Source of the DNA: Bacteroidales bacterium
GTDB taxonomy: Bacteria; Bacteroidota; Bacteroidia; Bacteroidales; UBA4417
Direction of reading: 5' to 3'
Length of the DNA: 64,000 nt
NCBI GenBank assembly: GCA_963665485.1
Contig: OY762227.1
Location: forward strand, 3,919,293-3,983,292
Shown piece by piece: positions 8,727 to 61,384 of this stretch. The notes under the pieces are model-generated. The model saw only the letters and a program-made list of their open reading frames with translations. It had not been told where the DNA came from and did not search any database. Within the stretch, counting starts at the first letter, position 1. Every line of letters starts with the position of its first letter. The translations under genes and the position numbers were made by a program.

Positions 8727-8736
8727 TGTCTGAGTC

Positions 8737-33022: not shown

Positions 33023-33529
33023 TTACAACCGGATGGATATTCCTATTTTCCCGCCAGAAAATGAATTTCCGCTTCCTACCTCTGCATTTATACCAAATTT
33101 ATCGTTAAAATAATAACGACCTCCAACCTGAAGGCCTAATCCAAGACCAGAACTACCACTACCGTTATAATTAGAGTCATTAGTATGCCAGATATAGTAG
33201 CCTAAATTGGCACCGGCATACACATCCCATTCTTTAGGAATATTTAGCAGGGTATTAAAATGATAATTCCCGTTAGCCGAGATACCAATAATTGTGTGCC
33301 GACTATTATAATTATCACCCCAATTATCGCTATATGACCGAAACGAAATTTCACCGCCTACAGTTATATCCTTATGTACACCAAAATCAACACCACCATA
33401 AACAGGAAGGCCCCAGGAAGAAAATCCGAAACCCGCGTTAATCTGTGCCTGGCCGATTCCAATAGGTGCTTGGGCAAACATTGCTGTTGCTGCGACTAAA
33501 AATACAAAAGTAATAAGAGCTTTTTTCAT
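33023..33529 (-). CDS. Small outer-membrane beta-barrel protein (OmpW/OmpX-like porin family)
   Basis: 168 aa with signal peptide MKKALITFVFLVAATAMFAQA. The body has an alternating Gly/aromatic beta-strand pattern, and the C-terminus is GGKIGISIRL. Confidence 0.7.
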   Translation of the reverse strand: MKKALITFVFLVAATAMFAQAPIGIGQAQINAGFGFSSWGLPVYGGVDFGVHKDITVGGEISFRSYSDNWGDNYNSRHTIIGISANGNYHFNTLLNIPKEWDVYAGANLGYYIWHTNDSNYNGSGSSGLGLGLQVGGRYYFNDKFGINAEVGSGNSFSGGKIGISIRL

Positions 33530-34042
33530 AATTAAGTTTTTAAAGTTACCTACTCGTATGGCTTTTCGGTTACGCCCTGTCTTTTAAAGTGGCTACAGAC
33601 CCACTTCTGTTATACAATCTTAAAAATCAAGTATCTGTTTCTCATTTTGCCGGTTGCAGAAAAAAATTCGCTTCACCATGAGATTATTCTTTGAGAATAC
33701 TACGTTGAGCCAGACATTTTTTTAGATAAACTTACAAAGTACTAAATTAGTATTCACTTTAACAAAGATAATTCATTAAAGTTTATTTACACTGGGGAAA
33801 TAAGCCCTAATTCAGAATCTTTTCAACATGGGATTGTTAAAATCAGAAAACGCCAGAAGAGAGAACACCAGGAACTTTTTTAGTTCTTACCTTGGAATCA
33901 ATTAAACTGAAAAGAAGATTGTGGTCAGATTGATAAAGTATTAAATAGGAATTTAGAACTCTTTTATATTTTTCGGTATTCATTTTGAAAATATCAAGAT
34001 TCTTTTTTCCAATAAAAGAGTTTGTAGTTTAAGCTCAAAGGT

Positions 34043-42862: not shown

Positions 42863-45286
42863 ATGAAAAAGCTGCTCTACATTCCTTTATTCTTATTGTG
42901 GTTTATACCTAAAGCAAATGCTCAAAGTTTCCTGCCATTTGCCTCGAGTAATTATGCGGGAATTACAGGAGTACATGCACAACCTGCTTCAATTGCCGAC
43001 AGTCGCTATAAGTTTGACCTGGCACTATTTTCAACAGATTTCAGCTTTCACAATACCTTTTATGGAATAGATCCATATGTACTTTCTCATCCAAAAGCAA
43101 TGAAGGACTTCGATTTTAAAGGTCCATATATTACACGTAATATGGATGGAGCCGATAAAACCGGAATAATCAGTATGCGACAGGATATTTTCTCATTTAT
43201 GATCACGCTTTCGAAAAAAGATGCGATAGCTTTTACTCCTTCAATCCGATCAATTGTCAATATCGATAATATGACCGAATCCCTGGCTCTGCTTGCTGAC
43301 GGGCTTAATAAGGAAACCAATTTATGGGGATTAACTTTGAAAAATGAAAATTTAAGTATACAGGCTAATGCATGGGTTGAATATGGCTTCACTTATGCAC
43401 GTACACTTATGGATAATAAGAAACACTTCCTGAAAGCCGGTACGACAATCAAAATTAACCAGGGTTTAGGATCGGCATATTTATTCATGAAAAATCTCAA
43501 TTATGAGGTTAATGATAGTTTGATATCAGTATATAACAGCTTTACAAATTACGGAATTTCCAATAATATCAATAAAGATTTCACGTATCGTCTTGAACCA
43601 AATCCTTCATTATCATTCGATTTTGGTTTTGTTTATGAATACCGTCCGGACTGGATCAAGTACAAATATGATATGGATGGGAAGATTAACCTGTGGCGCA
43701 GAGACCAGGATAAATATCTTTTCAGGATCGGATTTACTGCATCTGACCTAGGGAGTATTCGCTATAGCAGGAATCCTGACAGCAGAGACTTTGCTGCCGA
43801 TATTAAAAATCTGGATCCAGGCGACCTGATAATTGAGAACTTTGATGATTTCAATAAATTTATTGCTGATTCATTTAACCTTTCCAGTCCGTCCGATAAA
43901 TATAACCTCTCACTTCCTGTAAGCCTTAGCATGCAAGCCGATGTAAGAGTTGCGAATGGATTTTATGTCAATTTTACACCGTATATAGCACTCAACCGAG
44001 GGAACGTTAAAATTAATAAAGTACATTACATTTCATCGTACAGCCTGGTTCCACGATATGATAAAAAATGGTTCGGAGTCTCAGTTCCTTTTCAGTATAA
44101 TGCATTCAAGCAGTGGAATGTAGGATTAGGACTGAGGGTTGGACCTTTATGGTTCGGGTCGAATGACATTATCTCAATACTTGCATCATCCAAAAGCAGG
44201 TATGGAACTTCCTTTTCAATGGTGCTAAAAGTTCCGTTTTTCTATCATCGCCCGCACGATCGCGATAACGATAATGTATCTGATAAAAAAGATCATTGTC
44301 CTGAAATCGCCGGTTTCCTGCAACTCGATGGTTGTCCCGATGCCGATCTTGATGGAATCACAGATAGTAAAGATAAATGCCCTGATGTAGCTGGTTTAAA
44401 AGAATTTGACGGTTGCCCGGATACTGACGGAGACGGTATTGTTGACCAAAATGACCAGTGTCCCAATTTAAAGGGCATTCCAGCATTTAATGGCTGCCCC
44501 GATAGTGATGGCGATAGCATCATCGACCAGAATGATGAGTGCCCGATGAATGCCGGTTCAATTAAAATGCATGGTTGTCCTGATCAGGATGATGACGGTA
44601 TAGCTGATAAAGATGATAATTGTCCAACAGTAGCCGGTACACGCGAAAACAAAGGTTGTCCTTATATAGATAGCGACGGAGACGGAATTATTGATGAAGC
44701 AGACAATTGTCCCGGCACAAAAGGTCCTATCGAAAATCACGGATGCCCTTACCTGGATAGTGATAACGATAGCATTCCTGATAAAGACGATGATTGCCCG
44801 AGTATTCCGGGCCTTGTAGTATTCAGAGGTTGTCCGGATACTGATGGTGATGGAATTTCTGATAAATACGATCTTTGCCCGACCATACCGGGAATAGCCC
44901 AAAACAATGGTTGCCCGGAAATAAAAAAAGAAGAGCAGGAAATCATAAAAAAAGCTTTTGACAATCTCGAATTTGAAAGTGGTAAATCCATAATAAAAAA
45001 GACATCTTTGGAATCGCTCGACGGACTTGCAGATGTGATGAAAAAACGAAGTGAATTTAAACTTTCACTTTCCGGGCATACCGATAATGTAGGCAAACCA
45101 GCATCAAATCTCACTTTGTCAAAAAACCGCACAATGGCAGTACGGGATTATCTTGTAAAAAAAGGAATTGAACCTGAGCGTATTAAAACGGAATGGTTTG
45201 GCCAGACCCAACCGGTTGCCGAAAATACAACACCTGAAGGTCGGCAGAAAAACAGGAGAGTTGAGATGAAGATTGTTTTTGAGTAG
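42863..45286 (+). CDS. OmpA-family outer-membrane protein with an N-terminal beta-barrel-like region, eight thrombospondin type-3 (Ca-binding) repeats and a C-terminal OmpA peptidoglycan-binding domain
   Basis: 807 aa with signal peptide MKKLLYIPLFLLWFIPKANAQ. It has 8 repeats of D.D.DG(I/V).D..D.CP......GCP. The C-terminus is FEFESGKS...LSGHTDNVG....NLTLSKNRTMAVRDYL...G......WFG...P......EGRQKNRRVE. Confidence 0.85.
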   Translation: MKKLLYIPLFLLWFIPKANAQSFLPFASSNYAGITGVHAQPASIADSRYKFDLALFSTDFSFHNTFYGIDPYVLSHPKAMKDFDFKGPYITRNMDGADKTGIISMRQDIFSFMITLSKKDAIAFTPSIRSIVNIDNMTESLALLADGLNKETNLWGLTLKNENLSIQANAWVEYGFTYARTLMDNKKHFLKAGTTIKINQGLGSAYLFMKNLNYEVNDSLISVYNSFTNYGISNNINKDFTYRLEPNPSLSFDFGFVYEYRPDWIKYKYDMDGKINLWRRDQDKYLFRIGFTASDLGSIRYSRNPDSRDFAADIKNLDPGDLIIENFDDFNKFIADSFNLSSPSDKYNLSLPVSLSMQADVRVANGFYVNFTPYIALNRGNVKINKVHYISSYSLVPRYDKKWFGVSVPFQYNAFKQWNVGLGLRVGPLWFGSNDIISILASSKSRYGTSFSMVLKVPFFYHRPHDRDNDNVSDKKDHCPEIAGFLQLDGCPDADLDGITDSKDKCPDVAGLKEFDGCPDTDGDGIVDQNDQCPNLKGIPAFNGCPDSDGDSIIDQNDECPMNAGSIKMHGCPDQDDDGIADKDDNCPTVAGTRENKGCPYIDSDGDGIIDEADNCPGTKGPIENHGCPYLDSDNDSIPDKDDDCPSIPGLVVFRGCPDTDGDGISDKYDLCPTIPGIAQNNGCPEIKKEEQEIIKKAFDNLEFESGKSIIKKTSLESLDGLADVMKKRSEFKLSLSGHTDNVGKPASNLTLSKNRTMAVRDYLVKKGIEPERIKTEWFGQTQPVAENTTPEGRQKNRRVEMKIVFE
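44258..44917 (+). repeat. Eight tandem 27-codon thrombospondin type-3-like coding repeats
   Basis: The units begin DRDNDNVSDKKDHCP, DADLDGITDSKDKCP, DTDGDGIVDQNDQCP, DSDGDSIIDQNDECP, DQDDDGIADKDDNCP, DSDGDGIIDEADNCP, DSDNDSIPDKDDDCP and DTDGDGISDKYDLCP. Confidence 0.85.
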
Positions 45287-46528: not shown

Positions 46529-47545
46529 TCAGTTCGGTAATTTTATTAAATCATAATCGTGGGTAGGAAGTTTATAAAACCATTTATTGTCCTGATCGAA
46601 ATGTCCATCCCTTTTAGTTGCATTACCCGATTGTAATATTAGTTGTGTTTCGCGAATATATTGATTGTATTGAATGGTGAATTGATAAGTAGCCTTTTCC
46701 AACGCTGCATTTTGGGTCGACAACAACTTCCCCCACGCATCCTTGCCATCTTTGCGGCTCCACGTTTCGAATACTGCTTTTTGCGGAGTAAGTGTGATGC
46801 TGTTACCATTTACCTGATAAGTACCGCTTTCTTTAGTTAAATAGATATCCGAAAAAAATGAAAATGTTTTAATGATATCTCTGTAAGTGCCATTCTGATC
46901 GAAAATGTACTGCCTTTGAATATATCCAGAAGCCCCATTATTAGCATGATAAGCATCCTGGTCACTTGCAACCTTTGTCCAGGTACCAATTATTGAGCTA
47001 TTCGTATTAGCTGTTTCCTGTTGCTGAATTTCCGTATGTACGGCAAGTTTCTTATCAGGATTTGATAATGACACGGAGGTTAAAAGGCTTTGAATCTGCG
47101 GCATATAATCCTGACTGTTGTTAATGGCTATTATGCTTACAACCCTGCCGTAGCCACTCATAACCGAAAGTATCACCTGGGCATCACTATTATTAAAGGA
47201 AAATGTTCCGGAACCAACTTTAATTTTCCAACCTTCGGCTTCCTGTATGTCACCTGACTTTGGCGCTTCTTTGATTTGATAGGGAGTTGCTGCCAGAATC
47301 TGCCATTCACTTTCAAAATCCTCATCAATACTGCCTTTGCTGGCGGTGCTGCGGTAAATTCCGATCTGGCACCATGTTTTCTTACTATTATCGGTTTTTG
47401 TATAACTGATTAGGTTATCTTTAACTTCTTTCTTCCATCCGTCTCTTTTTGGAGGGGGAGTGTAAGTGGTGAGATCAAAGGTTTCGGTTTGGGCTGTTGC
47501 TATCGAAGTAATTACGATAAGGATTAGTGTAAATAAAGTTCTCAT
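46529..47545 (-). CDS. Exported hypothetical protein (338 aa)
   Basis: The ATG at 47545 gives signal peptide MRTLFTLILIVITSIATAQ. I recognise no family. The C-terminal half (IIGTWTKV..YIFDQNGTY..GTYQVNGNSITL) is lipocalin-like in flavour only. Confidence 0.55.
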   Translation of the reverse strand: MRTLFTLILIVITSIATAQTETFDLTTYTPPPKRDGWKKEVKDNLISYTKTDNSKKTWCQIGIYRSTASKGSIDEDFESEWQILAATPYQIKEAPKSGDIQEAEGWKIKVGSGTFSFNNSDAQVILSVMSGYGRVVSIIAINNSQDYMPQIQSLLTSVSLSNPDKKLAVHTEIQQQETANTNSSIIGTWTKVASDQDAYHANNGASGYIQRQYIFDQNGTYRDIIKTFSFFSDIYLTKESGTYQVNGNSITLTPQKAVFETWSRKDGKDAWGKLLSTQNAALEKATYQFTIQYNQYIRETQLILQSGNATKRDGHFDQDNKWFYKLPTHDYDLIKLPN

Positions 47546-47682: not shown

Positions 47683-48672
47683 TTATTTGCCTAGCATTGC
47701 TTTTAACACTTTGAAATCAACCGCATTCTGTATACCGGCGATATTCTCTTCAAATACGCGATCTCCATGCGCTATTTTATAAACCACGTAAAAAAACTGC
47801 GGAACTGATTTGGGCAATTTCTTATTGTAATAACTCAGATCTGGCTTTACGGCAATAAAACTTCCTTTAGTTCCTTCGTCAACAAAGCATGAAAATCGTT
47901 CTTCATCGTTCCATTTGCAAATAGCAGGCATGCTCAACTCCTGTTCGGGTTTCGATAATTCGTTATCAATGTTCTTCATGAACTGCTTATAGTAATCCGA
48001 GCTGCTTGGGTCGTCCTTCATGGTTTTCTCCAGTCTTTTCTTCTGGATTAAAAGGTATTCTTTACGATTTACGTAATAAAACGGAAGTTTGTTATCATAT
48101 GTAATCAGCCAGCGGTATTCAATAGTTTTATTCTCCAACCAGTCGCCACCAACAACTTCTTCACCCATATACCAGAAGCCATCTTTCAGTTGTGGTTTTT
48201 CTTTTAGTTTTAAATATCCCCTGAAGTCGTCATCCGGAAGGTCGGCGGCAAAAAGATTATTGAGCGACCAGATTGCATTGGCGGTTACTGTTACTGTAGT
48301 TGGAGTAGAAATATCGACATAGTATTTTAATTTATCAGCGTTTTTCTGATCACATATATACCTGAGAATGTACATATTGTAAGCAAAGTTATCGGCGATC
48401 CAGTTTTTGCCAGAAGCCGGACTGGCGCCACTAAAAGCATTGCTGTAGCTAACCTGGCAACCTTTGGGGGTGTAACCGCCAGATATCATTTTATGAATGT
48501 TTGCAAGTACGGCTTTTTCCTTCACCAGATCCGTAGCGCTAACGTTTGGGGTGGAGCCTTTTATTCCGGCTTTCCAGGTACCGGGCTTTTCGGCCAGTAA
48601 TTCCTGCGAGCAATCCTGTGCTGATGAAGCAAGCACAATCATCATAGCTGGTAACAATATCAGATATTTCAT
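47683..48672 (-). CDS. Exported hypothetical protein (329 aa)
   Basis: It has signal peptide MKYLILLPAMMIVLASSAQ. I recognise no family. The start lies 14 nt after the upstream stop. Confidence 0.55.
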   Translation of the reverse strand: MKYLILLPAMMIVLASSAQDCSQELLAEKPGTWKAGIKGSTPNVSATDLVKEKAVLANIHKMISGGYTPKGCQVSYSNAFSGASPASGKNWIADNFAYNMYILRYICDQKNADKLKYYVDISTPTTVTVTANAIWSLNNLFAADLPDDDFRGYLKLKEKPQLKDGFWYMGEEVVGGDWLENKTIEYRWLITYDNKLPFYYVNRKEYLLIQKKRLEKTMKDDPSSSDYYKQFMKNIDNELSKPEQELSMPAICKWNDEERFSCFVDEGTKGSFIAVKPDLSYYNKKLPKSVPQFFYVVYKIAHGDRVFEENIAGIQNAVDFKVLKAMLGK

Positions 48673-48686
48673 TTTTTTTGAAATTA

Positions 48687-50831
48687 TTACTTTTTAAAAA
48701 CGCCATCCAGAATTCCTGTACTTTCAACAGATGATTTGCCGCTGACCAAACTAATTTCTCCTTTAACACCAGCTTCAACGGATAAATCGCTCACCCCAAC
48801 ACCTGATTGACTGCCACCCTCTATAATATCGGTACCAACACTTACACCGGCCTGTGTTTTTACAATTACATCAGTTAATCCCGAACGATCAAATTCAGCC
48901 CTCATTGCAACCCCTATTGATGCTTCGGCTTTTAATACTCCGCCATTGAATCCTGCTGATTCCCCTGCCCCTATTTCAACAGAACAAGACATAAACTGGT
49001 CGCTAAAGTTGTCCAATGCGGAGCCTTCATTGGTTCCTTTATCCATATTCTGTTTTAACCCGAGTTTAATAATTTTCAAGTCGAGTTCACTTGTTACCCT
49101 GCTGCAATCCACATTAATTTTGCCAATGGGCAATTTTAATTCGCTGTGATATTCACAATGTACATCATCAAAATCCTGAAGTACAAATTTGCCTGGCTCA
49201 TTGTCCTGACTTTTAATACAATAAATGCTTTTGTCTTTAAACATTACTCTTTGTCCTGAAATTGCGCTCAACCATTGTATTTTTGCAGTTACTTTTTCGA
49301 CTTCAAATTCTTCGGGCCACTTAGTATATTGGTCGTAATAAATCTGGTTAATTAATTTCCGGCGCAAGAAATTCAGGTAGTCAGTCTGAGTTTGTCGCAA
49401 GAGTGTATTCGAATTAACCAGAAACAATTCGTTTACCCCGTTGTAATCACTGCAGGCCTGGCCAAAAGGATTTGACTTGCCTTCGCCAAACTTATCCTCG
49501 TACTTTTCATTCAATTCTTTAACACTATTACCACAAATCTGGCTGAGGCTGTCAACTGAATTCATTACCTGAATTAGCGCAGCATTTTTTTGTTGCATGG
49601 CAAATTCAAGATGTCCGTCTCTATCATCCACCAGGTAACCCAATTTTTTCATAGCCTTACTGGCCAAAGGAGGAAACAATGATCCATTTTGTCCTTTCGA
49701 CCCGGCTTTTAGTAACTGTTGAGTGCGCACCTGCCTGATTGAATTCAGGGCATCCTGCAACTTTTCCTCCTGGCTTTCCAGATTTGCTATTTCGTCGGCA
49801 CAAGCGTTTTTGAATTCATGCCACTTCTTTTCAAGAATTTCGCTTTCTTCTACATTTTGTGGATAATCGGGCCAGTTAAACTTTTCCAATCCAAGCGGAT
49901 CCTGAGGCATTTGTTTATCCCAGCCGATATCTTTGCTTTCCAGCTCATAACCTAATTTATACAACCTGTTTTCCTTTTCGGTAGTGTAACCTGCTTTTAT
50001 ACTGGCCAATGCAGCTTCCACGGCTCCTTGTGTATTTCCTTTGCTTTCTTCAATAAATGATTTGGTGTAATTGGCCTGTGGATGAGAAGCACAGATACGG
50101 ATTGTACTATCGAGATATTTTTCGGATTTTTCGATGTCGCCAAGCCCAAACCAAGCCTGTCCGAGGTTATTCAGAATAGTGCTGTTTGCGGGAGAACGCT
50201 TGTTCACATAATTTAAAATCGGTATTGACAATTGCTCTGCACCTGCCATTGCCAACATAGCGCCATAATTGTTCATATTATTCGTATTGGATGGATCATC
50301 GATACACGACTTTCCTATGACGTAAATTGCCAGTTCGGGTTTACCCATCATCCATAGGCCGGCTGCAGTATTTCCGGTTTCTACAGCCGAATTATGTTCT
50401 GCTTTAATGAGTTTGTATATTTCTTCAGCTGTTGAATTTGCATCAGGTTTCAGGACTGCAATTACTTTATTATGAGTTGCTAAAAGAAATGCTGGCAACG
50501 TAGCATTTGTCAAAGGCGTTTTGGAGATGCTGGCAATCCTCGCTGCATCCTTGTCCGGGATTATCCTCAAAGATGCAGTAGCTCCTTCCTGCAGTTGCAT
50601 GTCGGTAAAATCCGGAAGAGTATTCATTGCCGGCAATGATACACCCATACTATCCATCATCTTTTTATCTTCAGGACTCATATTGTCCAATTCTTTCTGT
50701 ACGTCTTCCATCATCTCCTGCATTTCTTTTTGAGTCGGGGCTTTCTCGGCCGGGGTCTTCGCAGGCTTTGCTTGTGGAAATGCCGTGACTATTGCCAGCA
50801 GGAATAAAGAAATGGATAGCAACTTTTTCAT
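48687..50831 (-). CDS. Exported hypothetical protein (714 aa) with TPR-like repeats, a coiled-coil segment and a Gly/Ser/Val-rich beta C-terminus
   Basis: The ATG at 50831 gives signal peptide MKKLLSISLFLLAIVTAFPQA. The track start at 51044 overlaps the upstream gene and I reject it. The TPR-like stretch is NNYGAMLAMAGAEQLSIPILNYV..ILNNLGQAWFGLGDIEKSEKYL. The tail is ..GVSVGTDIIEGGSQSGVGVSDLSVEAGVKGEISLVSGKSS. Confidence 0.55.
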   Translation of the reverse strand: MKKLLSISLFLLAIVTAFPQAKPAKTPAEKAPTQKEMQEMMEDVQKELDNMSPEDKKMMDSMGVSLPAMNTLPDFTDMQLQEGATASLRIIPDKDAARIASISKTPLTNATLPAFLLATHNKVIAVLKPDANSTAEEIYKLIKAEHNSAVETGNTAAGLWMMGKPELAIYVIGKSCIDDPSNTNNMNNYGAMLAMAGAEQLSIPILNYVNKRSPANSTILNNLGQAWFGLGDIEKSEKYLDSTIRICASHPQANYTKSFIEESKGNTQGAVEAALASIKAGYTTEKENRLYKLGYELESKDIGWDKQMPQDPLGLEKFNWPDYPQNVEESEILEKKWHEFKNACADEIANLESQEEKLQDALNSIRQVRTQQLLKAGSKGQNGSLFPPLASKAMKKLGYLVDDRDGHLEFAMQQKNAALIQVMNSVDSLSQICGNSVKELNEKYEDKFGEGKSNPFGQACSDYNGVNELFLVNSNTLLRQTQTDYLNFLRRKLINQIYYDQYTKWPEEFEVEKVTAKIQWLSAISGQRVMFKDKSIYCIKSQDNEPGKFVLQDFDDVHCEYHSELKLPIGKINVDCSRVTSELDLKIIKLGLKQNMDKGTNEGSALDNFSDQFMSCSVEIGAGESAGFNGGVLKAEASIGVAMRAEFDRSGLTDVIVKTQAGVSVGTDIIEGGSQSGVGVSDLSVEAGVKGEISLVSGKSSVESTGILDGVFKK

Positions 50832-50886: not shown

Positions 50887-51399
50887 TTAGAAAGCAGTCC
50901 ATGCAATATTTCTTTCGGAATCCCATCCGTTTTTAGCAGAAACAGTAAGTCCTCCGGTTTTACTGTTGGTATAATAAGTCCAGCCGATCCGGACAGCTCT
51001 GAGCACAACCTGTGTAACCATTTGACCATTTGCATCCTGCACATCGTCGCAACTTTCCACTTTGATATTTTCCATATTGATTTTATACACTATCACCACA
51101 CGATCGCTGCTCCGGGTTGTTACAGTAACTTCTCCATTAGGAAGTAATTGTTTGGAATTGATACCTGCACGCAATTCGCCTGATGCAGGGCCGACGGGCA
51201 TGGTAAAACTTATATGGGTATCATTACTGGCGGAGTTGCTTTGAAATGGATACGCTTCAATTTGTCGTTCGAATCCTTTTGCTACAGAATTTCCTTTGAT
51301 GGGGAGGCCGGTAGTGCCCGTGAGTTTTATGTAAGCATTGTTTTTCTGGCTGAATGCAATTGCCGGCAGAAGTAATAAAACAGACAGTAACTTTTTCAT
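50887..51399 (-). CDS. Exported Hcp-like (T6SS tube / tail-tube fold) protein
   Basis: 170 aa with signal peptide MKKLLSVLLLLPAIAFSQ. The mature part follows the Hcp pattern: AYIKLTGT..IKGNSVAKGFERQIEAYPF at the N-terminus, ISFTMPVGPASGELRAGINSKQLLP..VTV in the middle, VYKINMENIKVES, and RIGWTYY....GG.....NGWDSERN at the C-terminus. Compare P. aeruginosa Hcp1 (recalled from memory): FIKIGDVKGES..H..EIDVL.WSW, LSFTKYIDKSTPNLMMACSSGKHYP, YLIITLKEVLVSS and YGWNIRQN. Confidence 0.55.
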   Translation of the reverse strand: MKKLLSVLLLLPAIAFSQKNNAYIKLTGTTGLPIKGNSVAKGFERQIEAYPFQSNSASNDTHISFTMPVGPASGELRAGINSKQLLPNGEVTVTTRSSDRVVIVYKINMENIKVESCDDVQDANGQMVTQVVLRAVRIGWTYYTNSKTGGLTVSAKNGWDSERNIAWTAF

Positions 51400-51429: not shown

Positions 51430-53025
51430 TTATTTAATTGGATTAAAAAGATCGCTGAACCTTGTTCCGGCAATACCGGTATATGAAGCAAAAATTCCGC
51501 TCGACTGGAACCTGCTATCCAGTTTCGGGCACATACCAAAAACTACATAACTGGCATTTATTGACATGACCGGTTGTGTCGTCAAGCAACCATCATTCCC
51601 GGTTGTAACTGCTCGTGTTTCGCCGGTTGCGGTATTATGCATAAAGAAATTGTAATCAGGCGCACCCAGGTTTTTTGCTTTTGAATTAAAGGCAATCCAT
51701 TTCCCATCGAAACTGATAGCTACTTTTTCCCCCTGGCCTATCGGGCTATCGCCGTTTCCTTCTATTCCTTTAGAGTCAATGCTTACGCGAACAACAGTAT
51801 CTTTTTCAGTATCAACAACAAATATATCCTGGGAATTATTATTATCGTTGGGAACCAGGTTGGTGGCCGTAGTGGCAAATGCAACATACCGGCCATTGCC
51901 CGAAATAGAAGGCTTAACATCGCGTGTGGCGCTTTCATTTCCCTGGTTTCGTTCGTCACCATTATAAGTAAGGCTGATCCGCTTGAGCGGTTTATTTTTG
52001 CTATAAAGAAAAATATCCCAGAAATCGTTGTTATCTCCTCTTACAAGGTTAGGTGAAGCCGAGTGAAATGCAATTCTGGTGCTGTCGCCTGAAACCATGC
52101 TAATAGATGGTCTTGATCCGCCACCGCCTTTCTTCGTATTGTAATCTACACTGATCAGTTTTTGTTCACCAGTAGCCAGGTTGCACCAGTACACATTAAC
52201 CATTGATCCTGCATCAACTCCGGGAACAAGGTTTGTGGCTGAAGAAGTATAGGCTATTTCATCGGTTGATAGCGAAGGTTCGAAACTTTCGCCATTTGCC
52301 TCAACGCCATTCGGTCCGATGCTTACACGCTTTATTTCTCCTGTAGCGCTAGCCCATACAAAAACATCCTTAAACCCGTTTTTATCTCCATCCACCAGAT
52401 TGGTTGCATTCGACTCGAAAGCTACTGTACGACCATCCATTGACATGGAAGGAGCATAACTGTCGTTGTCGCCCTCCTCGCCTTTCGTGCCGCGACTAAC
52501 AAGGATTGTTTTACCGGTATTACGATCGCGCCAGAAAATCTGCCTGTGTTTACCGGTTGTTCCACAAAATTTTTCACTGTTGGAAACGAAGGCCACATAT
52601 CGCCCTTCCTCATTATTACTTCCGGCAACAACAGGCGCACTGCTTTCATAAAAAGTGCTGAAATTTGCATCCTTGGTGCTTCGGCTTACAAGATCATATT
52701 TATAATCGCATTCAATTTTTACATTGCCATTTTGTGGCATTACACCCTGCCCGCTGGTAATTCTACACACCATCCCGGCTGGTACAGTCTTTACTAAAAC
52801 ATTAAATTTTGCTCCTACCGGGATGGGTTTCGTGAATTTAAAAACATTCCTGCTGAATGTTCCAGTATCCTTTTTTGCTATCAGCGAAAGAATATCCGTG
52901 CCATTTTGCAAAACAATTGACGTGCCCGGAGGCGCTACAAAAATCCCATTAACTGAAGATCCTGTCTGTGCGTGCAACTGAATAATTACAATACACAGAA
53001 TTAATAAAGAGGCTAGTTTTTTCAT
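51430..53025 (-). CDS. Exported beta-propeller protein with PD40/TolB-like repeats
   Basis: 531 aa with signal peptide MKKLASLLILCIVIIQLHAQ. The repeated unit is ..G..(V/I)AF.S.ATNLV.GD.N...D(V/I)F(V/L)......G...RVS(I/V)...G.E.NG.S..PS(I/M)S.DG, about 6-7 copies. Confidence 0.7.
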   Translation of the reverse strand: MKKLASLLILCIVIIQLHAQTGSSVNGIFVAPPGTSIVLQNGTDILSLIAKKDTGTFSRNVFKFTKPIPVGAKFNVLVKTVPAGMVCRITSGQGVMPQNGNVKIECDYKYDLVSRSTKDANFSTFYESSAPVVAGSNNEEGRYVAFVSNSEKFCGTTGKHRQIFWRDRNTGKTILVSRGTKGEEGDNDSYAPSMSMDGRTVAFESNATNLVDGDKNGFKDVFVWASATGEIKRVSIGPNGVEANGESFEPSLSTDEIAYTSSATNLVPGVDAGSMVNVYWCNLATGEQKLISVDYNTKKGGGGSRPSISMVSGDSTRIAFHSASPNLVRGDNNDFWDIFLYSKNKPLKRISLTYNGDERNQGNESATRDVKPSISGNGRYVAFATTATNLVPNDNNNSQDIFVVDTEKDTVVRVSIDSKGIEGNGDSPIGQGEKVAISFDGKWIAFNSKAKNLGAPDYNFFMHNTATGETRAVTTGNDGCLTTQPVMSINASYVVFGMCPKLDSRFQSSGIFASYTGIAGTRFSDLFNPIK

Positions 53026-53124: not shown

Positions 53125-54525
53125 TTAAGGTCGGCTTTTTGCGATTTTTATCGTTTGTGGATTCCCGTCCCCGTCAGATGAAAATGTCAAAAAATACAAT
53201 CCTGCCGGTTGGTTTTCAAGTGTTATTTTATCTGAATTATTTCCATTTTTTTTATCTGACTTATATTCTGAAATCAGCTGACCCTGGCAATTCACCAATC
53301 TTATTAGTACATGAGAATTATGATGCAATTTATAATCGATATTTAAAAAATCACTGGTTGGATTTGGATACGCATTGATTGACAAATTATCTGCTTTGGT
53401 TTCTGAAACACCCATAAATGCAGGGCAGCTAACTTCTATCGGGATGAGTGAGCTTACGTTAGTCCCGTTACCAAACTGGCTCGAAACATTAGTTCCCCAG
53501 GCATATAATTTATTATCATTTTTTATAACCAACGAAAGGTAGTATCCGCAGGAAACAGATAACAGATTTGTTATATTTACAAGTTTCGGAATATTAAAAT
53601 TAGCATCATTGTTTATCCCCAGCGCTCCATTCTGGCCGTTCCCCCAAGCCCAAACAGTTCCACTGGTTTTTTGTGCAACTACATGTTCGGGGCCGCAAGC
53701 TATAATTTGCCAATCTGTAGCATTTCCAATTTTTGTGGGTACAAATTTGCCAACATTGGTGCCATCACCTAATTGGCCATAATAATTGTCGCCCCAGGTC
53801 CAAAGTGTGCCATCCGTTTTTATGCCTACAGTAAAATATTTCCCAACGGAGATTGCAGACCAGTCTGCAGATGTACCAACCTGCACAAATGTATTTCTGT
53901 TAGTGGTGGTTCCATCACCCAACTGACCCAGGTTATTCCGGCCACAGCCCCAAAGCGTTCCATCTTGTTTTATTGCAAACGTATTGAAAGGTCCGGCATA
54001 AACTTTTTGCCAGTTTGTTGCCAGGTCGACTTGGGTTGGCGTATTAAGCGAGGTATTAATAATTCCACCATTTCCAAGCTGACCATACTCATCACTCCCC
54101 CAGGTCCATAATGTTCCATCTGTTTTAACAGCAGTTGAATGATTTGCACCGGCTGCTATTCCAGCCCAATCAGATGATGTACCAACCTGTATAAGTCTCG
54201 AAGTATCTGTAACAGAAGCAACACCAATTTGTCCTGTGCCGTTGTGTCCCCAGGCCCAGATAGTTCCATCGGTTTTAAGACCAAGCGAATGACTAAGTCC
54301 GCACGAAGCAACTTGCCATGAAGAACCATCGATAAACGCAGGAGTTGTTCTCAATACAAGAGTCCCATCGCCTAATTCTCCATTATAATTTGCTCCCCAC
54401 GCCCAGAGTTTCCCGTCAATATCAATTGCCAGTGCATGGTAATCGCCGGCTGAAATTTTGCTCCAGCATTGTGCCTTTGCATTTATGCTTGCTATGAGAA
54501 ACAAAAAAAACATTATTTTTTTCAT
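53125..54525 (-). CDS. RCC1-repeat beta-propeller protein with a T9SS type-A C-terminal sorting domain
   Basis: 466 aa with signal peptide MKKIMFFLFLIASINAKAQ. It has seven RCC1-like blades (KTDGTLWTWG.N.YGQLGDGT). The C-terminus is LSINAYPNPTSDFLNIDY..LVNCQGQLISEY......AGLYFLTFSSD. Confidence 0.85.
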   Translation of the reverse strand: MKKIMFFLFLIASINAKAQCWSKISAGDYHALAIDIDGKLWAWGANYNGELGDGTLVLRTTPAFIDGSSWQVASCGLSHSLGLKTDGTIWAWGHNGTGQIGVASVTDTSRLIQVGTSSDWAGIAAGANHSTAVKTDGTLWTWGSDEYGQLGNGGIINTSLNTPTQVDLATNWQKVYAGPFNTFAIKQDGTLWGCGRNNLGQLGDGTTTNRNTFVQVGTSADWSAISVGKYFTVGIKTDGTLWTWGDNYYGQLGDGTNVGKFVPTKIGNATDWQIIACGPEHVVAQKTSGTVWAWGNGQNGALGINNDANFNIPKLVNITNLLSVSCGYYLSLVIKNDNKLYAWGTNVSSQFGNGTNVSSLIPIEVSCPAFMGVSETKADNLSINAYPNPTSDFLNIDYKLHHNSHVLIRLVNCQGQLISEYKSDKKNGNNSDKITLENQPAGLYFLTFSSDGDGNPQTIKIAKSRP

Positions 54526-54968: not shown

Positions 54969-56999
54969 ATGTTTTCACTTCTGCCATTAAACACATATTT
55001 TCATATGTTTAAAACCGATCATATTATGCTGAACCGGCATCACTTAATCCAAATGGTTAAAAGAATTTTAATCATATGCGCCGTCATTTTGCTTTCGGGA
55101 AATATTGTTTCGGCACAAAAGCAAGTGGTTGACAGCCTTACAAAAGAGCTAAAAAAAAACCTGGCTGATACTTCAAAAGCATTAGATCTTATGCGCCTTG
55201 CAATTGCATATGAGGGTATTGATACTTCCAAATCTGCTCATCTCTACAAAGAAGCAATCGCTTTCGGCAGAAAGAAGAAACTAACCTATTTAACTGGCCG
55301 CATATACTATAACCAGGCGCTATTATTTAAAGCTGGCTCCAAATATGCGGATGGTAATAAAAGCCTGGATAGCGCTATGTACTTATACACTCATGCAAAA
55401 GCGCCTGATGTTCAATTCCGTGTAGCGCAGGTTTATACCGAAAAATCTACGCTTGCACGCTATGCCGGCGACTACAAAAAAGCTTCATCGGAATTGCTGA
55501 AAGCAATCGATATTTTTACAAAGCTCGAAAAATACAGAAGTCTGCTTATTGCATACATCAATCTTGCTTCTATTTATAAGGAAATGAATGAATTTGAAAT
55601 TGAGGCAAAATATGCAAAAAAAGCAATTGACGTAGCACGCAAAACCGGAAAACCCGAAGATTTTTTTATAACGTATTCAAATGTCGCTCTTGCGTTAACC
55701 ATGATGAATGATTATAAACGAGCCGATATGTTTATCGATTCCGCAACGAAAAATTATTCGGATAACTATATGTTCGACAGGCTGGTAACCTTTCATTTAA
55801 TTGCTGGACTAATTGACATGAATCTCAAAAAAATGCAATTGGCAGAGAATCATTTTAAAGAATGCTATAAAATTTCGGAACAGAATAAATTTGAATTCGG
55901 GATAATACAATCGCGCCTGCAACTTTCTAGAGTACTAACATTAGAGAAAAAATTCGGAGAAGCTGAGCCATTGCTGTTATCCGTGTATGCTGAAGTAAAG
56001 AAATCCAATGAGTCAAGCCACCTGCTTACAACTTTGGATTACCTCTCCCGCTTTTATGAGGAATCAGGCAATTATAAACCTGCACTTAGTTATTACAAGG
56101 AATTTAAGACACTCACTGATTCAGTTTCCAGCATACAAAACAAAGAATACATGTCGGGGCTGGAAGTAAAGTACGATGTAGCCACCAAAGAAAACCTGCT
56201 GATGAGCCAGAAGGCTCAGCTGTTAAAAAGGCGGAACTTTGCTTATCTGCTTTCAGGATTTTTAGTAACATCCTTATTAACAGTGCTTTTCCTGATTTTA
56301 AACTTCAAACACAAACAGAAAATTCAGCAGCAACGCATTAATGAACTTGAGAAAGAAAAACAACTTGAAGCCGCCGAAGCAGTTGTTAAAGGCGAAGAAC
56401 TGGAAAGATCGCGCCTTGCCAGAGATCTGCACGATGGATTAGGAGGTATGCTAAGCGGAATAAAACATTCATTTGCAACTATGAAAGGAAATTTAATAAT
56501 GACGCCTGACAACGTGCAGGCTTTCGAACGCAGCATGGATATGCTGGATAGTTCCATAAAAGAAATGCGCCGGGTGGCTCATAATATGATGCCTGAAGCC
56601 CTTATCAGGTTCGGACTGGATACCGCGCTGAAGGATTTCTGCAACGAAATTAACCAAAGCGGAGTTTTAAAAGTCAACTACCAATCCATTGGTATTGAAG
56701 GTGTTGTAACTGATTCGACAATTACAATAACCCTTTACCGTATTGTGCAGGAATTACTGAATAACGTAATGAAACATGCCGGTGCAACTTCAGCCATTGT
56801 GCAGGTAACAAAATCGAATGAGTTGTTGTCGCTTACCGTTGAAGATGACGGAAAAGGATTCGATACCAGTATTTTGAAAATGAATAAAGGAATTGGATGG
56901 GTAAATATTCAGAACCGTGTTGATTTTTTGCAAGGTAAACTGGATATCCGCTCCAAAGAAGGAGAAGGAACTTCGGTGCAGATTGATTTGAATACTTAG
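54969..56999 (+). CDS. Sensor histidine kinase with a TPR-repeat sensor region, one TM helix, and HisKA_3 plus HATPase_c domains
   Basis: It has a TPR-like repeat region of about 350 aa and the TM helix FAYLLSGFLVTSLLTVLFLILNF. The H-box is ERSRLARDLHDGLGGMLSG, and the ATPase motifs are ELLNNVMKHAGA..VEDDGKGF..GIGWVNIQNRV..GEGTSV. The true start may be ATG 55053 (MVKRILIICAVILLSGNIVSAQ). Confidence 0.85.
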   Translation: MFSLLPLNTYFHMFKTDHIMLNRHHLIQMVKRILIICAVILLSGNIVSAQKQVVDSLTKELKKNLADTSKALDLMRLAIAYEGIDTSKSAHLYKEAIAFGRKKKLTYLTGRIYYNQALLFKAGSKYADGNKSLDSAMYLYTHAKAPDVQFRVAQVYTEKSTLARYAGDYKKASSELLKAIDIFTKLEKYRSLLIAYINLASIYKEMNEFEIEAKYAKKAIDVARKTGKPEDFFITYSNVALALTMMNDYKRADMFIDSATKNYSDNYMFDRLVTFHLIAGLIDMNLKKMQLAENHFKECYKISEQNKFEFGIIQSRLQLSRVLTLEKKFGEAEPLLLSVYAEVKKSNESSHLLTTLDYLSRFYEESGNYKPALSYYKEFKTLTDSVSSIQNKEYMSGLEVKYDVATKENLLMSQKAQLLKRRNFAYLLSGFLVTSLLTVLFLILNFKHKQKIQQQRINELEKEKQLEAAEAVVKGEELERSRLARDLHDGLGGMLSGIKHSFATMKGNLIMTPDNVQAFERSMDMLDSSIKEMRRVAHNMMPEALIRFGLDTALKDFCNEINQSGVLKVNYQSIGIEGVVTDSTITITLYRIVQELLNNVMKHAGATSAIVQVTKSNELLSLTVEDDGKGFDTSILKMNKGIGWVNIQNRVDFLQGKLDIRSKEGEGTSVQIDLNT

Positions 57000-57198: not shown

Positions 57199-57816
57199 AT
57201 GGCAATAAAAGTATTTATTACTGATGATCATTATATGGTAGTGGAAGGAATCCGGTCACTGTTGCAACTTGAGTCAAAGATAGAATGGATGGGTCATGCC
57301 ACCAATGCTTCATCGTGCATGTCGTTTATCCGGCAGCAGCAACCGGATGTTTTGCTACTTGATATAAATCTGCCTGATAAGAGCGGAATTGATTTATGTA
57401 AGGAAATCAAAACTATGTATCCCGAAATAAACATCCTCGGACTAAGCTCATTCAATCAACAGAGTTATATTCAGAAAATGATGCAAAACGGAGCTTCCGG
57501 CTACCTGTTAAAAAATGCTACCCAGGAAGAAATTCTTAATGCCATCGAAGCCGTAGTTCGCGGCGACATTTTTATGAGTAAAGAAGCTGTTACCACCATG
57601 CGTGAGAACAAAGATGCCGCGATACCGGTAATAACCAGGCGAGAGAAAGAAGTTTTGCAATTGATTGCCGAAGGCATGAAGAACAAAGAGATTGCCGAAA
57701 AATTATTTATCAGCATCACTACTGTTGATACACACCGAAATAGTCTGCTCTCGAAATTTGATGTAAAGAATACGGCTAACCTAATTCATCTGGCCGCTCA
57801 GTACAAGCTGATTTAA
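57199..57816 (+). CDS. Response regulator, NarL/LuxR family (REC plus HTH_LuxR)
   Basis: It has IKVFITDDHYMVVEG and the phospho-acceptor context DVLLLDINLPDKSG. The C-terminus is ITRREKEVLQLIAEGMKNKEIAEKLFISITTVDTHRNSLLSKF. Confidence 0.9.
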   Translation: MAIKVFITDDHYMVVEGIRSLLQLESKIEWMGHATNASSCMSFIRQQQPDVLLLDINLPDKSGIDLCKEIKTMYPEINILGLSSFNQQSYIQKMMQNGASGYLLKNATQEEILNAIEAVVRGDIFMSKEAVTTMRENKDAAIPVITRREKEVLQLIAEGMKNKEIAEKLFISITTVDTHRNSLLSKFDVKNTANLIHLAAQYKLI

Positions 57817-59926: not shown

Positions 59927-61384
59927 ATGCAATACAACGAAATGGAAGGAATTAAAGAACTTCATCAGGAAGTTTGGGAAAATTGCCTTAAAGTAATCCG
60001 CGACAACCTCAACTATCAAAGTTTTAAAACCTGGTTTTCTCCTATTAAAGCAATTAAACTGGATAACAATATTCTTACCATCCAGGTTCCGAGCCAGTTT
60101 TTTTATGAATGGCTTGAAGAGCATTATATTACTCTTCTAAAGAAAACCATTCGAAACGAACTGGGTCCAAACGGAAGGTTAGAATATAGTATTGTTATGG
60201 AAGGAGCATACACTTCCGATCCTTACACCATTAAAATACCTACCAGTAACAATAAAGCTACCAGAAATCCATCAGTACAAATGCCGATAGATTTAAACGC
60301 GGGGAAATCAAAAGAAATACCTAATCCATTTGTTATTCCGGGCCTCAAAAAGATCCAGGTTCAATCGCAATTGAACGAATCATACTCTTTTGATAATTTC
60401 ATTGAAGGTGATTGTAACAGGTTAGCACGGTCAGCTGGCTACGCGGTTGCATGTAATCCTGGTAAAACTGCTTTTAATCCGCTGTTTCTCTACAGCCCTG
60501 TTGGTTTAGGCAAAACTCACCTTGCCCAGGCTATCGGTTTGCAGGTAAAAAACAATTTCCCTGAAAAAACTGTTTTGTATGTTGCTACTGAGCAGTTTAC
60601 GCAACAATTTATTGATTCGGTCCGCAGTAACAACCAAAACGATTTTGTTCATTTTTACCAGATGATCGATGTACTGATCATTGATGATATTCATTTCCTT
60701 TCAGGCAAAGAAAAGACACAAGATGTTTTCTTTCATATTTTCAACCATCTGCATCAAAAAGGAAAACAACTAATCCTCACCAGCGATAAAGCGCCGGTTG
60801 AATTGAAAGGATTAGAGCCAAGATTATTATCGCGTTTCAAATGGGGATTGGCAGCCGATCTTCAGGTTCCGGATCTGGAAACCCGTATTGCCATCCTGAA
60901 AAAGAGATTGTATAAAGACGGCATCGATATGCCATACGAGGTTCTCGAATACCTGGCATACAGCATCACTACCAATGTTCGGGAACTTGAAGGCGCTCTG
61001 ATTTCGCTGATGGCTCAGTCATCACTGAATAAAAAAGCCATTACCATTGACCTGGCAAGGCAAATGATTGATAAGTTCGTAAAAAATACAGCCCGCGAAA
61101 TATCTATTGATTTTATCCAGAAAATAGTTTGCGATTACTTTGATATCCCTGTTGACGCAATAAACTCAAAAACCCGCAAGCGCGATATCGTTCAGGCACG
61201 TCAGCTGGCAATGTATTATTCCAAAAAGCACACTAAGGCTTCGCTGGCAACCATCGGGCTGCATTGTGGCAACAAAGATCACGCAACCGTACTTCATGCC
61301 TGTCGCACCGTAAACAACCTGATTGAGACCGACAAGCAATTCCGCACTTATGTGGAAGAAATTGAAAAAAGGATCAAATTCTAA
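59927..61384 (+). CDS. dnaA: Chromosomal replication initiator protein DnaA
   Basis: 485 aa. It has YSFDNFIEGDCNRLA, Walker A PLFLYSPVGLGKTHL, Walker B VLIIDDIHFL, sensor NVRELEGAL, and the domain IV DNA-binding helix RQLAMYYSKKHT..SLATIG..G.KDHATVLHA. Confidence 0.95.
   Translation: MQYNEMEGIKELHQEVWENCLKVIRDNLNYQSFKTWFSPIKAIKLDNNILTIQVPSQFFYEWLEEHYITLLKKTIRNELGPNGRLEYSIVMEGAYTSDPYTIKIPTSNNKATRNPSVQMPIDLNAGKSKEIPNPFVIPGLKKIQVQSQLNESYSFDNFIEGDCNRLARSAGYAVACNPGKTAFNPLFLYSPVGLGKTHLAQAIGLQVKNNFPEKTVLYVATEQFTQQFIDSVRSNNQNDFVHFYQMIDVLIIDDIHFLSGKEKTQDVFFHIFNHLHQKGKQLILTSDKAPVELKGLEPRLLSRFKWGLAADLQVPDLETRIAILKKRLYKDGIDMPYEVLEYLAYSITTNVRELEGALISLMAQSSLNKKAITIDLARQMIDKFVKNTAREISIDFIQKIVCDYFDIPVDAINSKTRKRDIVQARQLAMYYSKKHTKASLATIGLHCGNKDHATVLHACRTVNNLIETDKQFRTYVEEIEKRIKF

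Follow-up and report, generated by a model that had tools for sequence, protein, structure and literature searches.

The locus and its Hcp-like gene

The stretch of DNA considered here (64,000 nucleotides of contig OY762227.1 in assembly GCA_963665485.1, from a member of the Bacteroidales; "the window" in the following) carries on its minus strand a gene for a protein of 170 amino acids that resembles Hcp, the tube protein of type VI secretion systems (T6SS), and that begins with what looks like a signal peptide. Hcp is the textbook protein that is secreted without a signal peptide, and this property helped to define the T6SS. A preliminary description, made from the sequence alone, had pointed out the combination of fold and leader and the lack of T6SS genes within the 64 kb. 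We are now highly confident that the product of this gene, called the Hcp-like protein from here on, is an exported Hcp-fold protein that is independent of a T6SS. The window is otherwise an ordinary Bacteroidota chromosomal region with 39% GC and with cargo proteins of the type IX secretion system (T9SS).

A cleavable leader

The open reading frame (ORF), the stop codon of which is at 50887-50889, opens with MKK, followed by LLSVLLLLPAIAF and then by AFS directly in front of Gln18; the mature chain would begin with QKNNAY. The N-terminus thus shows the layout of a signal peptidase I substrate, with a basic n-region, a 13-residue h-region broken by a proline, small residues at positions −3 and −1 and glutamine at +1. 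In Bacteroidetes glutamine at +1 of signal peptidase I substrates is known as the Q-rule, the residue being converted to pyroglutamate (PMC5837995; PMC10653852). Sequence rules of this kind, together with conservation in the family (see below), strongly support the assignment as a classical cleavable Sec/signal peptidase I leader with predicted cleavage after Ser17, which is the site that had been proposed in the preliminary description.

That the true start might be internal, and the leader therefore only apparent, had been considered from the beginning. An in-frame TAA lies 8 codons 5′ of the ATG; neither ATG nor GTG nor TTG is found in codons 2-25, and the next methionine after Met1 is residue 67. 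Since there is no alternative start before residue 67, the leader cannot be skipped without loss of the first strands of the fold. In the AlphaFold2 model of the protein residues 1-17 are the sole disordered part (predicted local distance difference test score, pLDDT, below 50).

A membrane anchor was ruled out because the hydrophobic segment is too short and contains proline, and a lipoprotein (signal peptidase II substrate) because there is no lipobox cysteine in or near the leader, the single cysteine of the protein being residue 117. The Pfam scan found no T9SS C-terminal sorting domain (Por_Secre_tail or CHU_C) in the protein.

The fold

Pfam family PF05638 (T6SS_HCP) matched the Hcp-like protein with 31.9 bits (gathering cutoff 23.5; E = 1.8e-7), residues 23-142 being aligned with the complete model (positions 1-129 of 129); the cutoff of TIGR03344, the TssD family of NCBIfam, was failed (15.2 bits vs 58.9). 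A search of the PDB with the sequence by phmmer yielded nothing useful, and the Hcp fold was therefore established by modelling. The AlphaFold2 model, built on 11 homologues (mean pLDDT 86.4; predicted template-modelling score 0.78), has the single helix and the long bent strands of an Hcp beta-barrel. All 50 listed top matches of the model in the PDB, as found by Foldseek, are Hcp proteins or Hcp-containing fusion constructs (including 4tv4, 5xhh, 1y12 and 4hkh); the best E value was 4.6e-11, and the target-normalised template-modelling (TM) scores against Hcp structures were 0.7-0.86 over 150-168 aligned columns. Identity to the proteobacterial Hcps in these alignments is only 13-23%. The 152-residue mature chain is wholly taken up by the fold, and RIGWTYY and GWD, the most conserved motifs of the family, are located in the long strands typical of the Hcp barrel. 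Both tests that had been suggested for the fold, one against PF05638 and one against the Hcp crystal structures, hence gave significant matches, and profile and model together strongly support that the gene product is a genuine Hcp-fold protein, as first suspected.

The tail tubes of phages (the class of T4 gp19 and lambda gpV) share the tube fold only distantly. Viral tail-tube structures matched the model with E values of at best 3e-4 and TM scores of not more than 0.5, and PHROGs contained no match; because of these much weaker viral matches and the missing PHROG the protein is assigned to the Hcp lineage and not to the phage tube proteins. A phage tail tube was also rejected on the ground that the scanned ORFs of the window contain no phage genes. 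A known anti-phage defence function was rejected as well, PADLOC having no match for the Hcp-like protein or five of its neighbours. NCBIfam gave only sub-threshold matches, for three proteins of the window.

A family of exported relatives

In ten out of ten close homologues of the Hcp-like protein (48-96% identity) the leader is kept. An exhaustive search with HMMER, covering 1.84 billion representatives of clusters, returned 95 relatives at E ≤ 1e-3, of which every full-length one begins with a signal-peptide-like sequence, the exceptions being fragments or proteins with mis-called starts. When these relatives were pooled with 85 genomic and metagenomic copies, 154 distinct proteins were obtained: a hydrophobic core of leader type is present in 149 of them, and in 133 a small-x-small site precedes a glutamine at +1. 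Gln18 is invariant in two alignments of the family (A1 and A3). PF05638 was matched individually by 38 of 48 diverse members, with a best E value of 1.3e-24. A survey of signal peptides and neighbours among Hcp relatives, as the preliminary description had advised, therefore finds the leader to be a property of the family and the neighbours to be exported proteins (see below). The results strongly support that the Sec leader is ancestral in the clade, which comprises about 95 clusters at 50% identity, mostly from Chitinophagaceae and Cytophagales.

One subfamily has a pair of cysteines at positions 117 and 123, at the tip of a long hairpin, and another has its pair within an inserted loop after position 60; the clade of the window retains only Cys117. 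Such loop pairs would fit folding in an oxidising compartment, and we take them as a supporting hint. The C-terminus of the family carries a conserved W-x-x-F. Relative to orthologues of 86% and 68% identity, the ratio of non-synonymous to synonymous substitution rates (dN/dS) of the gene is approximately 0.21 and 0.10, respectively; with values of 0.1-0.2, which indicate purifying selection, the gene is evidently maintained by selection.

A scan of one genome per species revealed 80 loci, nearly all of them in Chitinophagaceae (Terrimonas, Ferruginibacter, Paraflavitalea, Lacibacter, Hydrotalea and Niabella) and in metagenome-assembled genomes (MAGs) of Cytophagales type; none of the 80 proteins is more than 46% identical to that of the window. 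The family inhabits soil and wastewater Bacteroidota. Annotation pipelines name its members "type VI protein secretion system component Hcp" or "hypothetical", and in the literature searched for a Sec-exported Hcp we found no paper describing one.

Four distant matches (P0078, P0094, P0098 and P0104) have leaders without glutamine at +1 (e.g. TASA followed by DIYLKLEG). They may come from other phyla, and Hcp-fold proteins with an export signal may thus occur beyond Bacteroidota as well. One locus (L069) stems from a MAG labelled Bordetella parapertussis, most likely a mis-binned Bacteroidota contig.

The neighbouring genes in the window

The features of the locus are collected in Table 1; family names (C0, C3 and so on) are those of the clustering described in the next section.

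Table 1. Position and strand of the Hcp-like gene, its leader and the genes around it, numbered from the first nucleotide of the window.
Feature	Position	Strand	Remarks
Hcp-like ORF	50887..51399	minus	170 aa; PF05638 above gathering cutoff and AlphaFold model matching Hcp crystal structures
Predicted Sec/signal peptidase I signal peptide	51346..51399 (codons 1-18)	minus	MKKLLSVLLLLPAIAFS, then Q; from reading of the sequence; Gln18 is the predicted mature N-terminus
C12, exported PD40/TolB-like beta-propeller	51430..53025	minus	531 aa; PD40 29.7 bits; 30 nt upstream of the Hcp-like gene
C3, exported TPR protein	48687..50831	minus	714 aa; starts 55 nt downstream of the Hcp-like gene
C8, exported protein without known family	47683..48672	minus	329 aa
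C0, exported protein	46529..47542	minus	~337 aa; N-terminal domain of no known kind and C-terminal lipocalin-like domain (Lipocalin_4, 24 bits, weak)
RCC1-repeat protein with T9SS C-terminal sorting domain	53125..54525	minus	co-directional, 99 nt upstream of C12
C5, TPR-containing HisKA_3 sensor histidine kinase	54969..56999	plus	divergent from the cluster
C6, LuxR/NarL-type response regulator	57199..57816	plus	paired with the C5 kinase

Read along the minus strand, the order is RCC1, C12, Hcp-like, C3, C8 and C0, with gaps of 99, 30, 55, 14 and 140 nt. The order C12, Hcp-like, C3 recurs on other contigs with the identical protein and in orthologues, and C12 adjoins the Hcp-like gene likewise in L001, L002, L085 and L086; the family of the RCC1 protein (C31) is present in only four loci and is not a conserved member of the cluster. 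The ORF called mechanically for C3 (48687-51044, minus strand, 785 aa) reaches 158 nt into the 3′ end of the Hcp-like gene. Its real start is almost certainly the methionine at 50831, which opens a signal peptide (MKKLLSISLF) and gives the 714-residue protein called on other contigs.

A sigma-70 scan gave hits at or below the expectation from shuffled sequence, and an exact TAnnTTTG does not occur in the intergenic regions. Since the promoter and terminator scans gave nothing, common strand and close spacing are the only grounds for an operon structure. The cluster is of ordinary base composition and gives no sign of recent transfer.

Components of a T6SS (TssB/C, VgrG, baseplate, ClpV) were absent from the 36 ORFs of the window that were scanned with Pfam; about 15 further ORFs, judged by eye from their N-termini, look like genes of sugar metabolism or housekeeping. 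To this extent the early statement that the 64 kb contain no T6SS genes holds.

Gene families around 85 loci

For a comparison of neighbourhoods the 80 loci of the species scan, four metagenomic loci and the window were taken together with flanks of up to ±10 kb. Genes were called with a simple ORF picker and their proteins clustered by single-linkage BLAST, so that the boundaries between families (e.g. between C0 and C24) are approximate. In 71 of 79 loci the upstream neighbour of the Hcp-like gene is on the same strand, the median gap being 41 nt. The most frequent family is C0 (~340-460 aa), which occurs in 65 of the 85 loci, frequently with 2-4 copies per locus; in 45 a C0 gene is the immediate upstream neighbour of the Hcp-like gene. 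C0 is followed by C3 (~710 aa, with a TPR array; 39 loci), C4 (~620 aa; 30 loci), C8 (23 loci), the PD40 beta-propeller C12 (16 loci) and C16 (10 loci), C8 and C16 both having ~330-370 aa. A divergent TPR-HisKA_3 kinase is present in 28 loci and a LuxR-type regulator in 27; among the 40 loci with long flanks, 19 have the kinase C5. At least one core family occurs in 71 of the 85 loci and in 36 of the 40 with long flanks.

Within each core family 72-100% of the members have signal-peptide-like N-termini, as judged heuristically. Profile comparisons by hhalign between the Hcp-like family and its neighbours aligned the leaders alone, each ending in A/S-Q, and tube-fold paralogues among the neighbour families were therefore rejected. 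Searches of the neighbour families against Pfam, NCBIfam, PADLOC, PHROGs and, by profile, the PDB gave nothing beyond the TPR of C3, the PD40 of C12 and a weak lipocalin-like match of the C0 protein in the window; in the PDB, C0, C4 and C8 had no match and C3 matched by its TPR segment only. The remaining clusters that recur reflect housekeeping synteny or consist of unrelated genes (SET-domain proteins, an M48 peptidase, fmt/rsmB-like genes, pntAB and an ATP-grasp protein; the labels SET-domain, M48 peptidase and fmt/rsmB-like come from reading the sequences by eye). No T6SS or tail component is among the recurrent families of the 85 loci.

The picture drawn in the preliminary description thus needs revision: the context is free of T6SS genes, as stated there, but the gene does not stand by itself and belongs, as an accessory, to a conserved and widespread cluster for exported proteins, often beside a two-component system. 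The view that the protein must have a biology other than that of a T6SS tube has gained from the Hcp fold, the conserved leader, the cysteine pairs in the loops and the exported neighbours.

The C3 cluster and its optional members

C3 has more than 855 relatives at E ≤ 1e-10, which are named only "TPR repeat protein" or "hypothetical". A metagenome scan seeded with C3, and hence not biased toward Hcp-like loci, gave 80 annotated loci (L098-L177), 36 of them at least 12 kb long. These 36 contain C8 in 30 cases, in each of which it comes after C3, C0 in 25, the kinase in 24, C4 in 17 and the Hcp-like gene in 3. The conserved core is C3> C8> (C4) (C12) C0>, often preceded by the divergent pair regulator< kinase<, which may control the cluster. 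Since the Hcp-like gene is found in only 3 of the 36, it is an optional or accessory addition to this core; conversely, it is itself almost always located inside a cluster of the C3/C8/C0 type (~90% of the well-flanked loci). The cluster of C3, C8, C4 and C0 is widespread and devoid of functional annotation, we found no paper on it, and the kinase accompanies it in about two-thirds of the well-flanked C3 loci. One C3 homologue (P0127) is labelled Candidatus Methanoperedens and is most likely from a mis-binned Bacteroidota contig.

The model of C3 is confident for a TPR array (residues ~112-292) and for the bundle that residues 327-525 form out of very long helices (up to ~52 residues). The C-terminal 170 residues are conserved, rich in glycine, serine and valine and of alternating hydrophobic pattern; they were modelled as long amphipathic beta-hairpins with a pLDDT below 50. 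Four cysteines are invariant or nearly so. Foldseek with the C3 model returned TPR matches only. A spike-like beta-helix or a membrane beta-barrel at the C-terminus is not supported, the pLDDT of this region being too low; that the tail is an oligomerising or membrane-inserting part is speculation from the model.

In some variants of the cluster there is a gene for a homologue of pore formers like the cholesterol-dependent cytolysins (CDC-like). The protein of L097 (561 aa, 7715-9397) matched the PDB entry 6nal, "thiol-activated cytolysin", with E = 9.8e-5 over ~200 residues and was not recognised by Pfam. Relatives lie by the Hcp-like gene in L020 (10908-12645), L021 (10711-12645), L070 (10624-12780) and L077 (11295-12190), in L020, L021 and L077 immediately downstream of it, and the shorter C21 family matches part of the L097 protein. 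A CDC-like or C21-family gene is found in only ~10 of the 85 loci and not in the window. An astacin-like protease family (C20, seven members) recurs in some loci. The CDC-like variants do no more than hint at a possible role of the cluster in secreted antagonism, because the window lacks such a gene and because the description of CDCL proteins in PMC11169675 makes no mention of Hcp.

Clusters may also be headed by a well-conserved exported family of 155 aa, C29 (L097:9430-9894, L001:7831-8289 and L002:6399-6860), the resemblance of which to YbjN is sub-threshold (E = 0.12) and finds no support in the PDB. That C29 is a chaperone-like substitute standing at the position of the Hcp-like gene in L097 was rejected, since it co-occurs with the Hcp-like gene in L001 and L002.

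A sister subfamily paired with a T9SS-sorted protein

A distant subfamily of Hcp-like proteins (180-190 aa) has an I-x-G-E-S motif like that of canonical Hcp and a cysteine pair in an inserted loop. Four cases are informative and independent of one another (P0064, P0086, P0055 and P0070), and in each of them a partner gene is located 10-45 nt 3′ of the Hcp-like gene. The partner (~250-270 aa) consists of a signal peptide, a specific N-terminal segment of ~60 residues, usually with cysteine, a generic beta-sandwich and a T9SS C-terminal sorting domain; a fifth case has a truncated homologue of it. The pairs form two-gene modules amid unrelated housekeeping genes (L091:10001-11309, L093:439-1815, L094:1375-2712 and L095:5001-6422). 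Unrelated cargo proteins of the T9SS also carry the tail of sandwich and sorting domain; for the specific N-terminal segment no homologue was found in clusters of the type present in the window. In either context, then, the gene of an exported Hcp-like protein is linked to genes of further exported proteins.

Relation to known systems

With the Hcp/TssD proteins of T6SS (Hcp1 of P. aeruginosa, 1Y12; B. pseudomallei, 4TV4; Hcp1 of S. Typhimurium, 5XHH) the Hcp-like protein shares the fold over the whole mature chain at the TM scores given above, the N-terminal strand with an I-K-G-x-S motif and the C-terminal GWD motif. It differs from them in having a cleavable Sec leader, which canonical Hcp lacks, in the loop cysteine pairs and the W-x-x-F C-terminus of its family, in failing TIGR03344, and in its genetic partners, which are exported proteins and not VgrG, sheath proteins or effectors. 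TssD of the Bacteroidota system T6SSiii belongs to the same phylum and protein superfamily. There tssD is co-localised with tssI, next to tssR and often present in multiple copies (PMC10781749), whereas the Hcp-like genes, with their Sec leader, are never found with tssI or tssR in the 85 loci.

The CDCL proteins of Bacteroidota are two-component antibacterial pore-formers (PMC11169675), and their described operons encode a pair of lipoprotein toxins, to which an immunity lipoprotein and a porin may be added, but no Hcp (PMC7527733; PMC11169675). The likeness to the loci described here is that both are exported-protein systems of Bacteroidota and that some variants of the Hcp-like cluster, although not the one in the window, carry a CDC-like homologue.

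The Hcp-like clade lies outside T6SS loci in every locus examined, which means that the tube fold is also in use beyond the cytoplasm. A familiar fold is thus met with in another compartment and among other partners, a situation that neither the literature searched nor the profile libraries explain. The label "type VI secretion system component Hcp" can give false T6SS calls in soil and wastewater Bacteroidota. In addition, the gene points to a conserved gene cluster that is far more common than itself and whose exported products belong to no known families.

Proposed function

In T6SS, Hcp rings bind cargo and stabilise or chaperone it. By analogy we propose that the Hcp-like protein is an exported accessory protein forming a partner-binding ring. 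The precursor would cross the inner membrane unfolded via Sec and be cut after Ser17; the new N-terminal Gln18 would be cyclised to pyroglutamate according to the Bacteroidota Q-rule, and the mature protein of 152 residues would fold outside the cytoplasm, in the periplasm or at the surface together with a partner. Because the tube of a T6SS polymerises in the cytoplasm, a protein exported in this way could not feed it. The mature protein might then assemble into a ring of the Hcp type in the periplasm or at the cell surface, and the ring might bind, hold or adapt one or more of the co-encoded exported partners, re-using the cargo binding of Hcp. The principle would be the one by which Hcp acts as effector receptor and chaperone in T6SS, transferred to the periplasm or surface and to proteins routed by Sec or by the T9SS. 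We prefer this reading since it explains both genomic contexts, including the sister subfamily with its T9SS-sorted partner. As a whole, inferred role included, it is possible and put forward with reserve, and the role of a ring-shaped chaperone or adaptor, taken by itself, is tentative.

Several points weigh against such a role. The formation of a ring is assumed from the fold. C0 (~37-50 kDa) and C3 (~78 kDa) are as whole proteins too large for a lumen of ~40 Å, and as the co-encoded partners exceed the lumen any binding would have to use a segment of the partner or the outer face of the ring. No single partner stands out: C0 is the commonest neighbour, yet in the window the gene is located between C12 and C3. 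The neighbour families were functionally blank in the library searches, the absence of a T6SS is established at the level of the locus only, and the signal peptide was called by rules.

The barrel might also serve without forming a ring, as a monomeric or dimeric binding or structural protein of the envelope or as a secreted cargo or accessory of a toxin system. The wide failure of TIGR03344 (15.2 vs 58.9 bits) would agree with such a use, and the CDC-like pore-former homologues near the gene in some variants, together with the astacin-like protease C20, hint at a possible secreted antagonism system with interchangeable accessories. A CDC-like or C21 gene is, however, lacking from the window and from all but ~10 of the 85 loci, the model superposes on ring-forming Hcps over nearly the whole mature chain (150-168 columns), and the motifs RIGWTYY and GWD are placed in the long strands typical of the Hcp barrel; we therefore regard a use of this kind as somewhat unlikely. 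If rings are formed, they could stack into a tube or fibre docked on an outer-membrane pore made by C3, which would amount to a new channel independent of T6SS. Hcp rings are the building blocks of tubes, C3 begins 55 nt downstream in the window and in orthologues, and its very long helices and low-confidence amphipathic hairpins are what one would expect of a segment that needs an oligomer or a membrane in order to fold. But a C3-based machine does not oblige an Hcp-like gene, which only 3 of the 36 long C3-seeded loci contain; the clusters provide no sheath, spike, ATPase or other source of energy; of C3 Foldseek recognises nothing but the TPR part, and no tube-fold paralogue is detectable among the neighbour families. 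A conduit is accordingly quite improbable.

Very improbable is a decoy, in which a periplasmic Hcp-like ring would give immunity by capturing Hcp-dependent effectors injected by the T6SS of rivals. For many T6SS effectors the periplasm is the site of action and the lumen of Hcp the site of recognition, and contact-dependent attack is plausible for hosts living in soil and wastewater. The gene is, however, situated amid large exported proteins and a sensor kinase and not in an array of immunity genes, an identity of 13-23% to proteobacterial Hcps makes mimicry of a foreign Hcp lumen unlikely, and the tie of the sister subfamily to a T9SS-sorted protein would be left unexplained; with regard to the three roles named in the preliminary description (chaperone ring, conduit or decoy), the context thus favours binding or chaperoning over a decoy. 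Next to negligible, finally, is an annotation artefact, i.e., an ordinary cytoplasmic Hcp with an internal start or a non-signal N-terminus that serves a T6SS elsewhere in the genome. Pipelines do label the relatives as T6SS components, and other bacteria commonly have orphan hcp genes at a distance from their T6SS loci; yet there is no alternative start before residue 67, leader and Q-rule motif are conserved (149 of 154), all HMMER relatives down to E = 1e-3 carry the leader apart from fragments and mis-called starts, and neither tssI nor tssR, beside which tssD is located in T6SSiii (PMC10781749), was found at these loci.

Returning to the partner-binding ring, a bolder version of it would have a tube protein of T6SS exapted for use outside the cytoplasm: as adaptors or chaperones, Sec-exported Hcp rings would retain their partners in the periplasm until these are passed to a recipient, which would be the T9SS in one subfamily and, in that of the window, an undescribed envelope system of C3, C8 and C0 that often adjoins a two-component system. 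We consider this version rather unlikely. The system of C3, C8 and C0 may, given the CDC-like toxins in some variants, be a new apparatus for secreted antagonism or pore formation.

Other features of the window

A dnaA gene at 59927-61384 (plus strand) suggests that the window may be near a replication origin; no clear switch is visible in the GC skew over 40-62 kb. The DUF805 RNA motif of Rfam was found on the minus strand at 33543-33609 (52.7 bits; gathering score 51.1), and just downstream of it, at 33023-33529, lies a gene for an outer-membrane beta-barrel of 168 aa. An exported protein of 807 aa (42863-45286, plus strand) combines DUF5723 with an extended series of thrombospondin type 3 (calcium-binding) repeats and ends in an OmpA domain.

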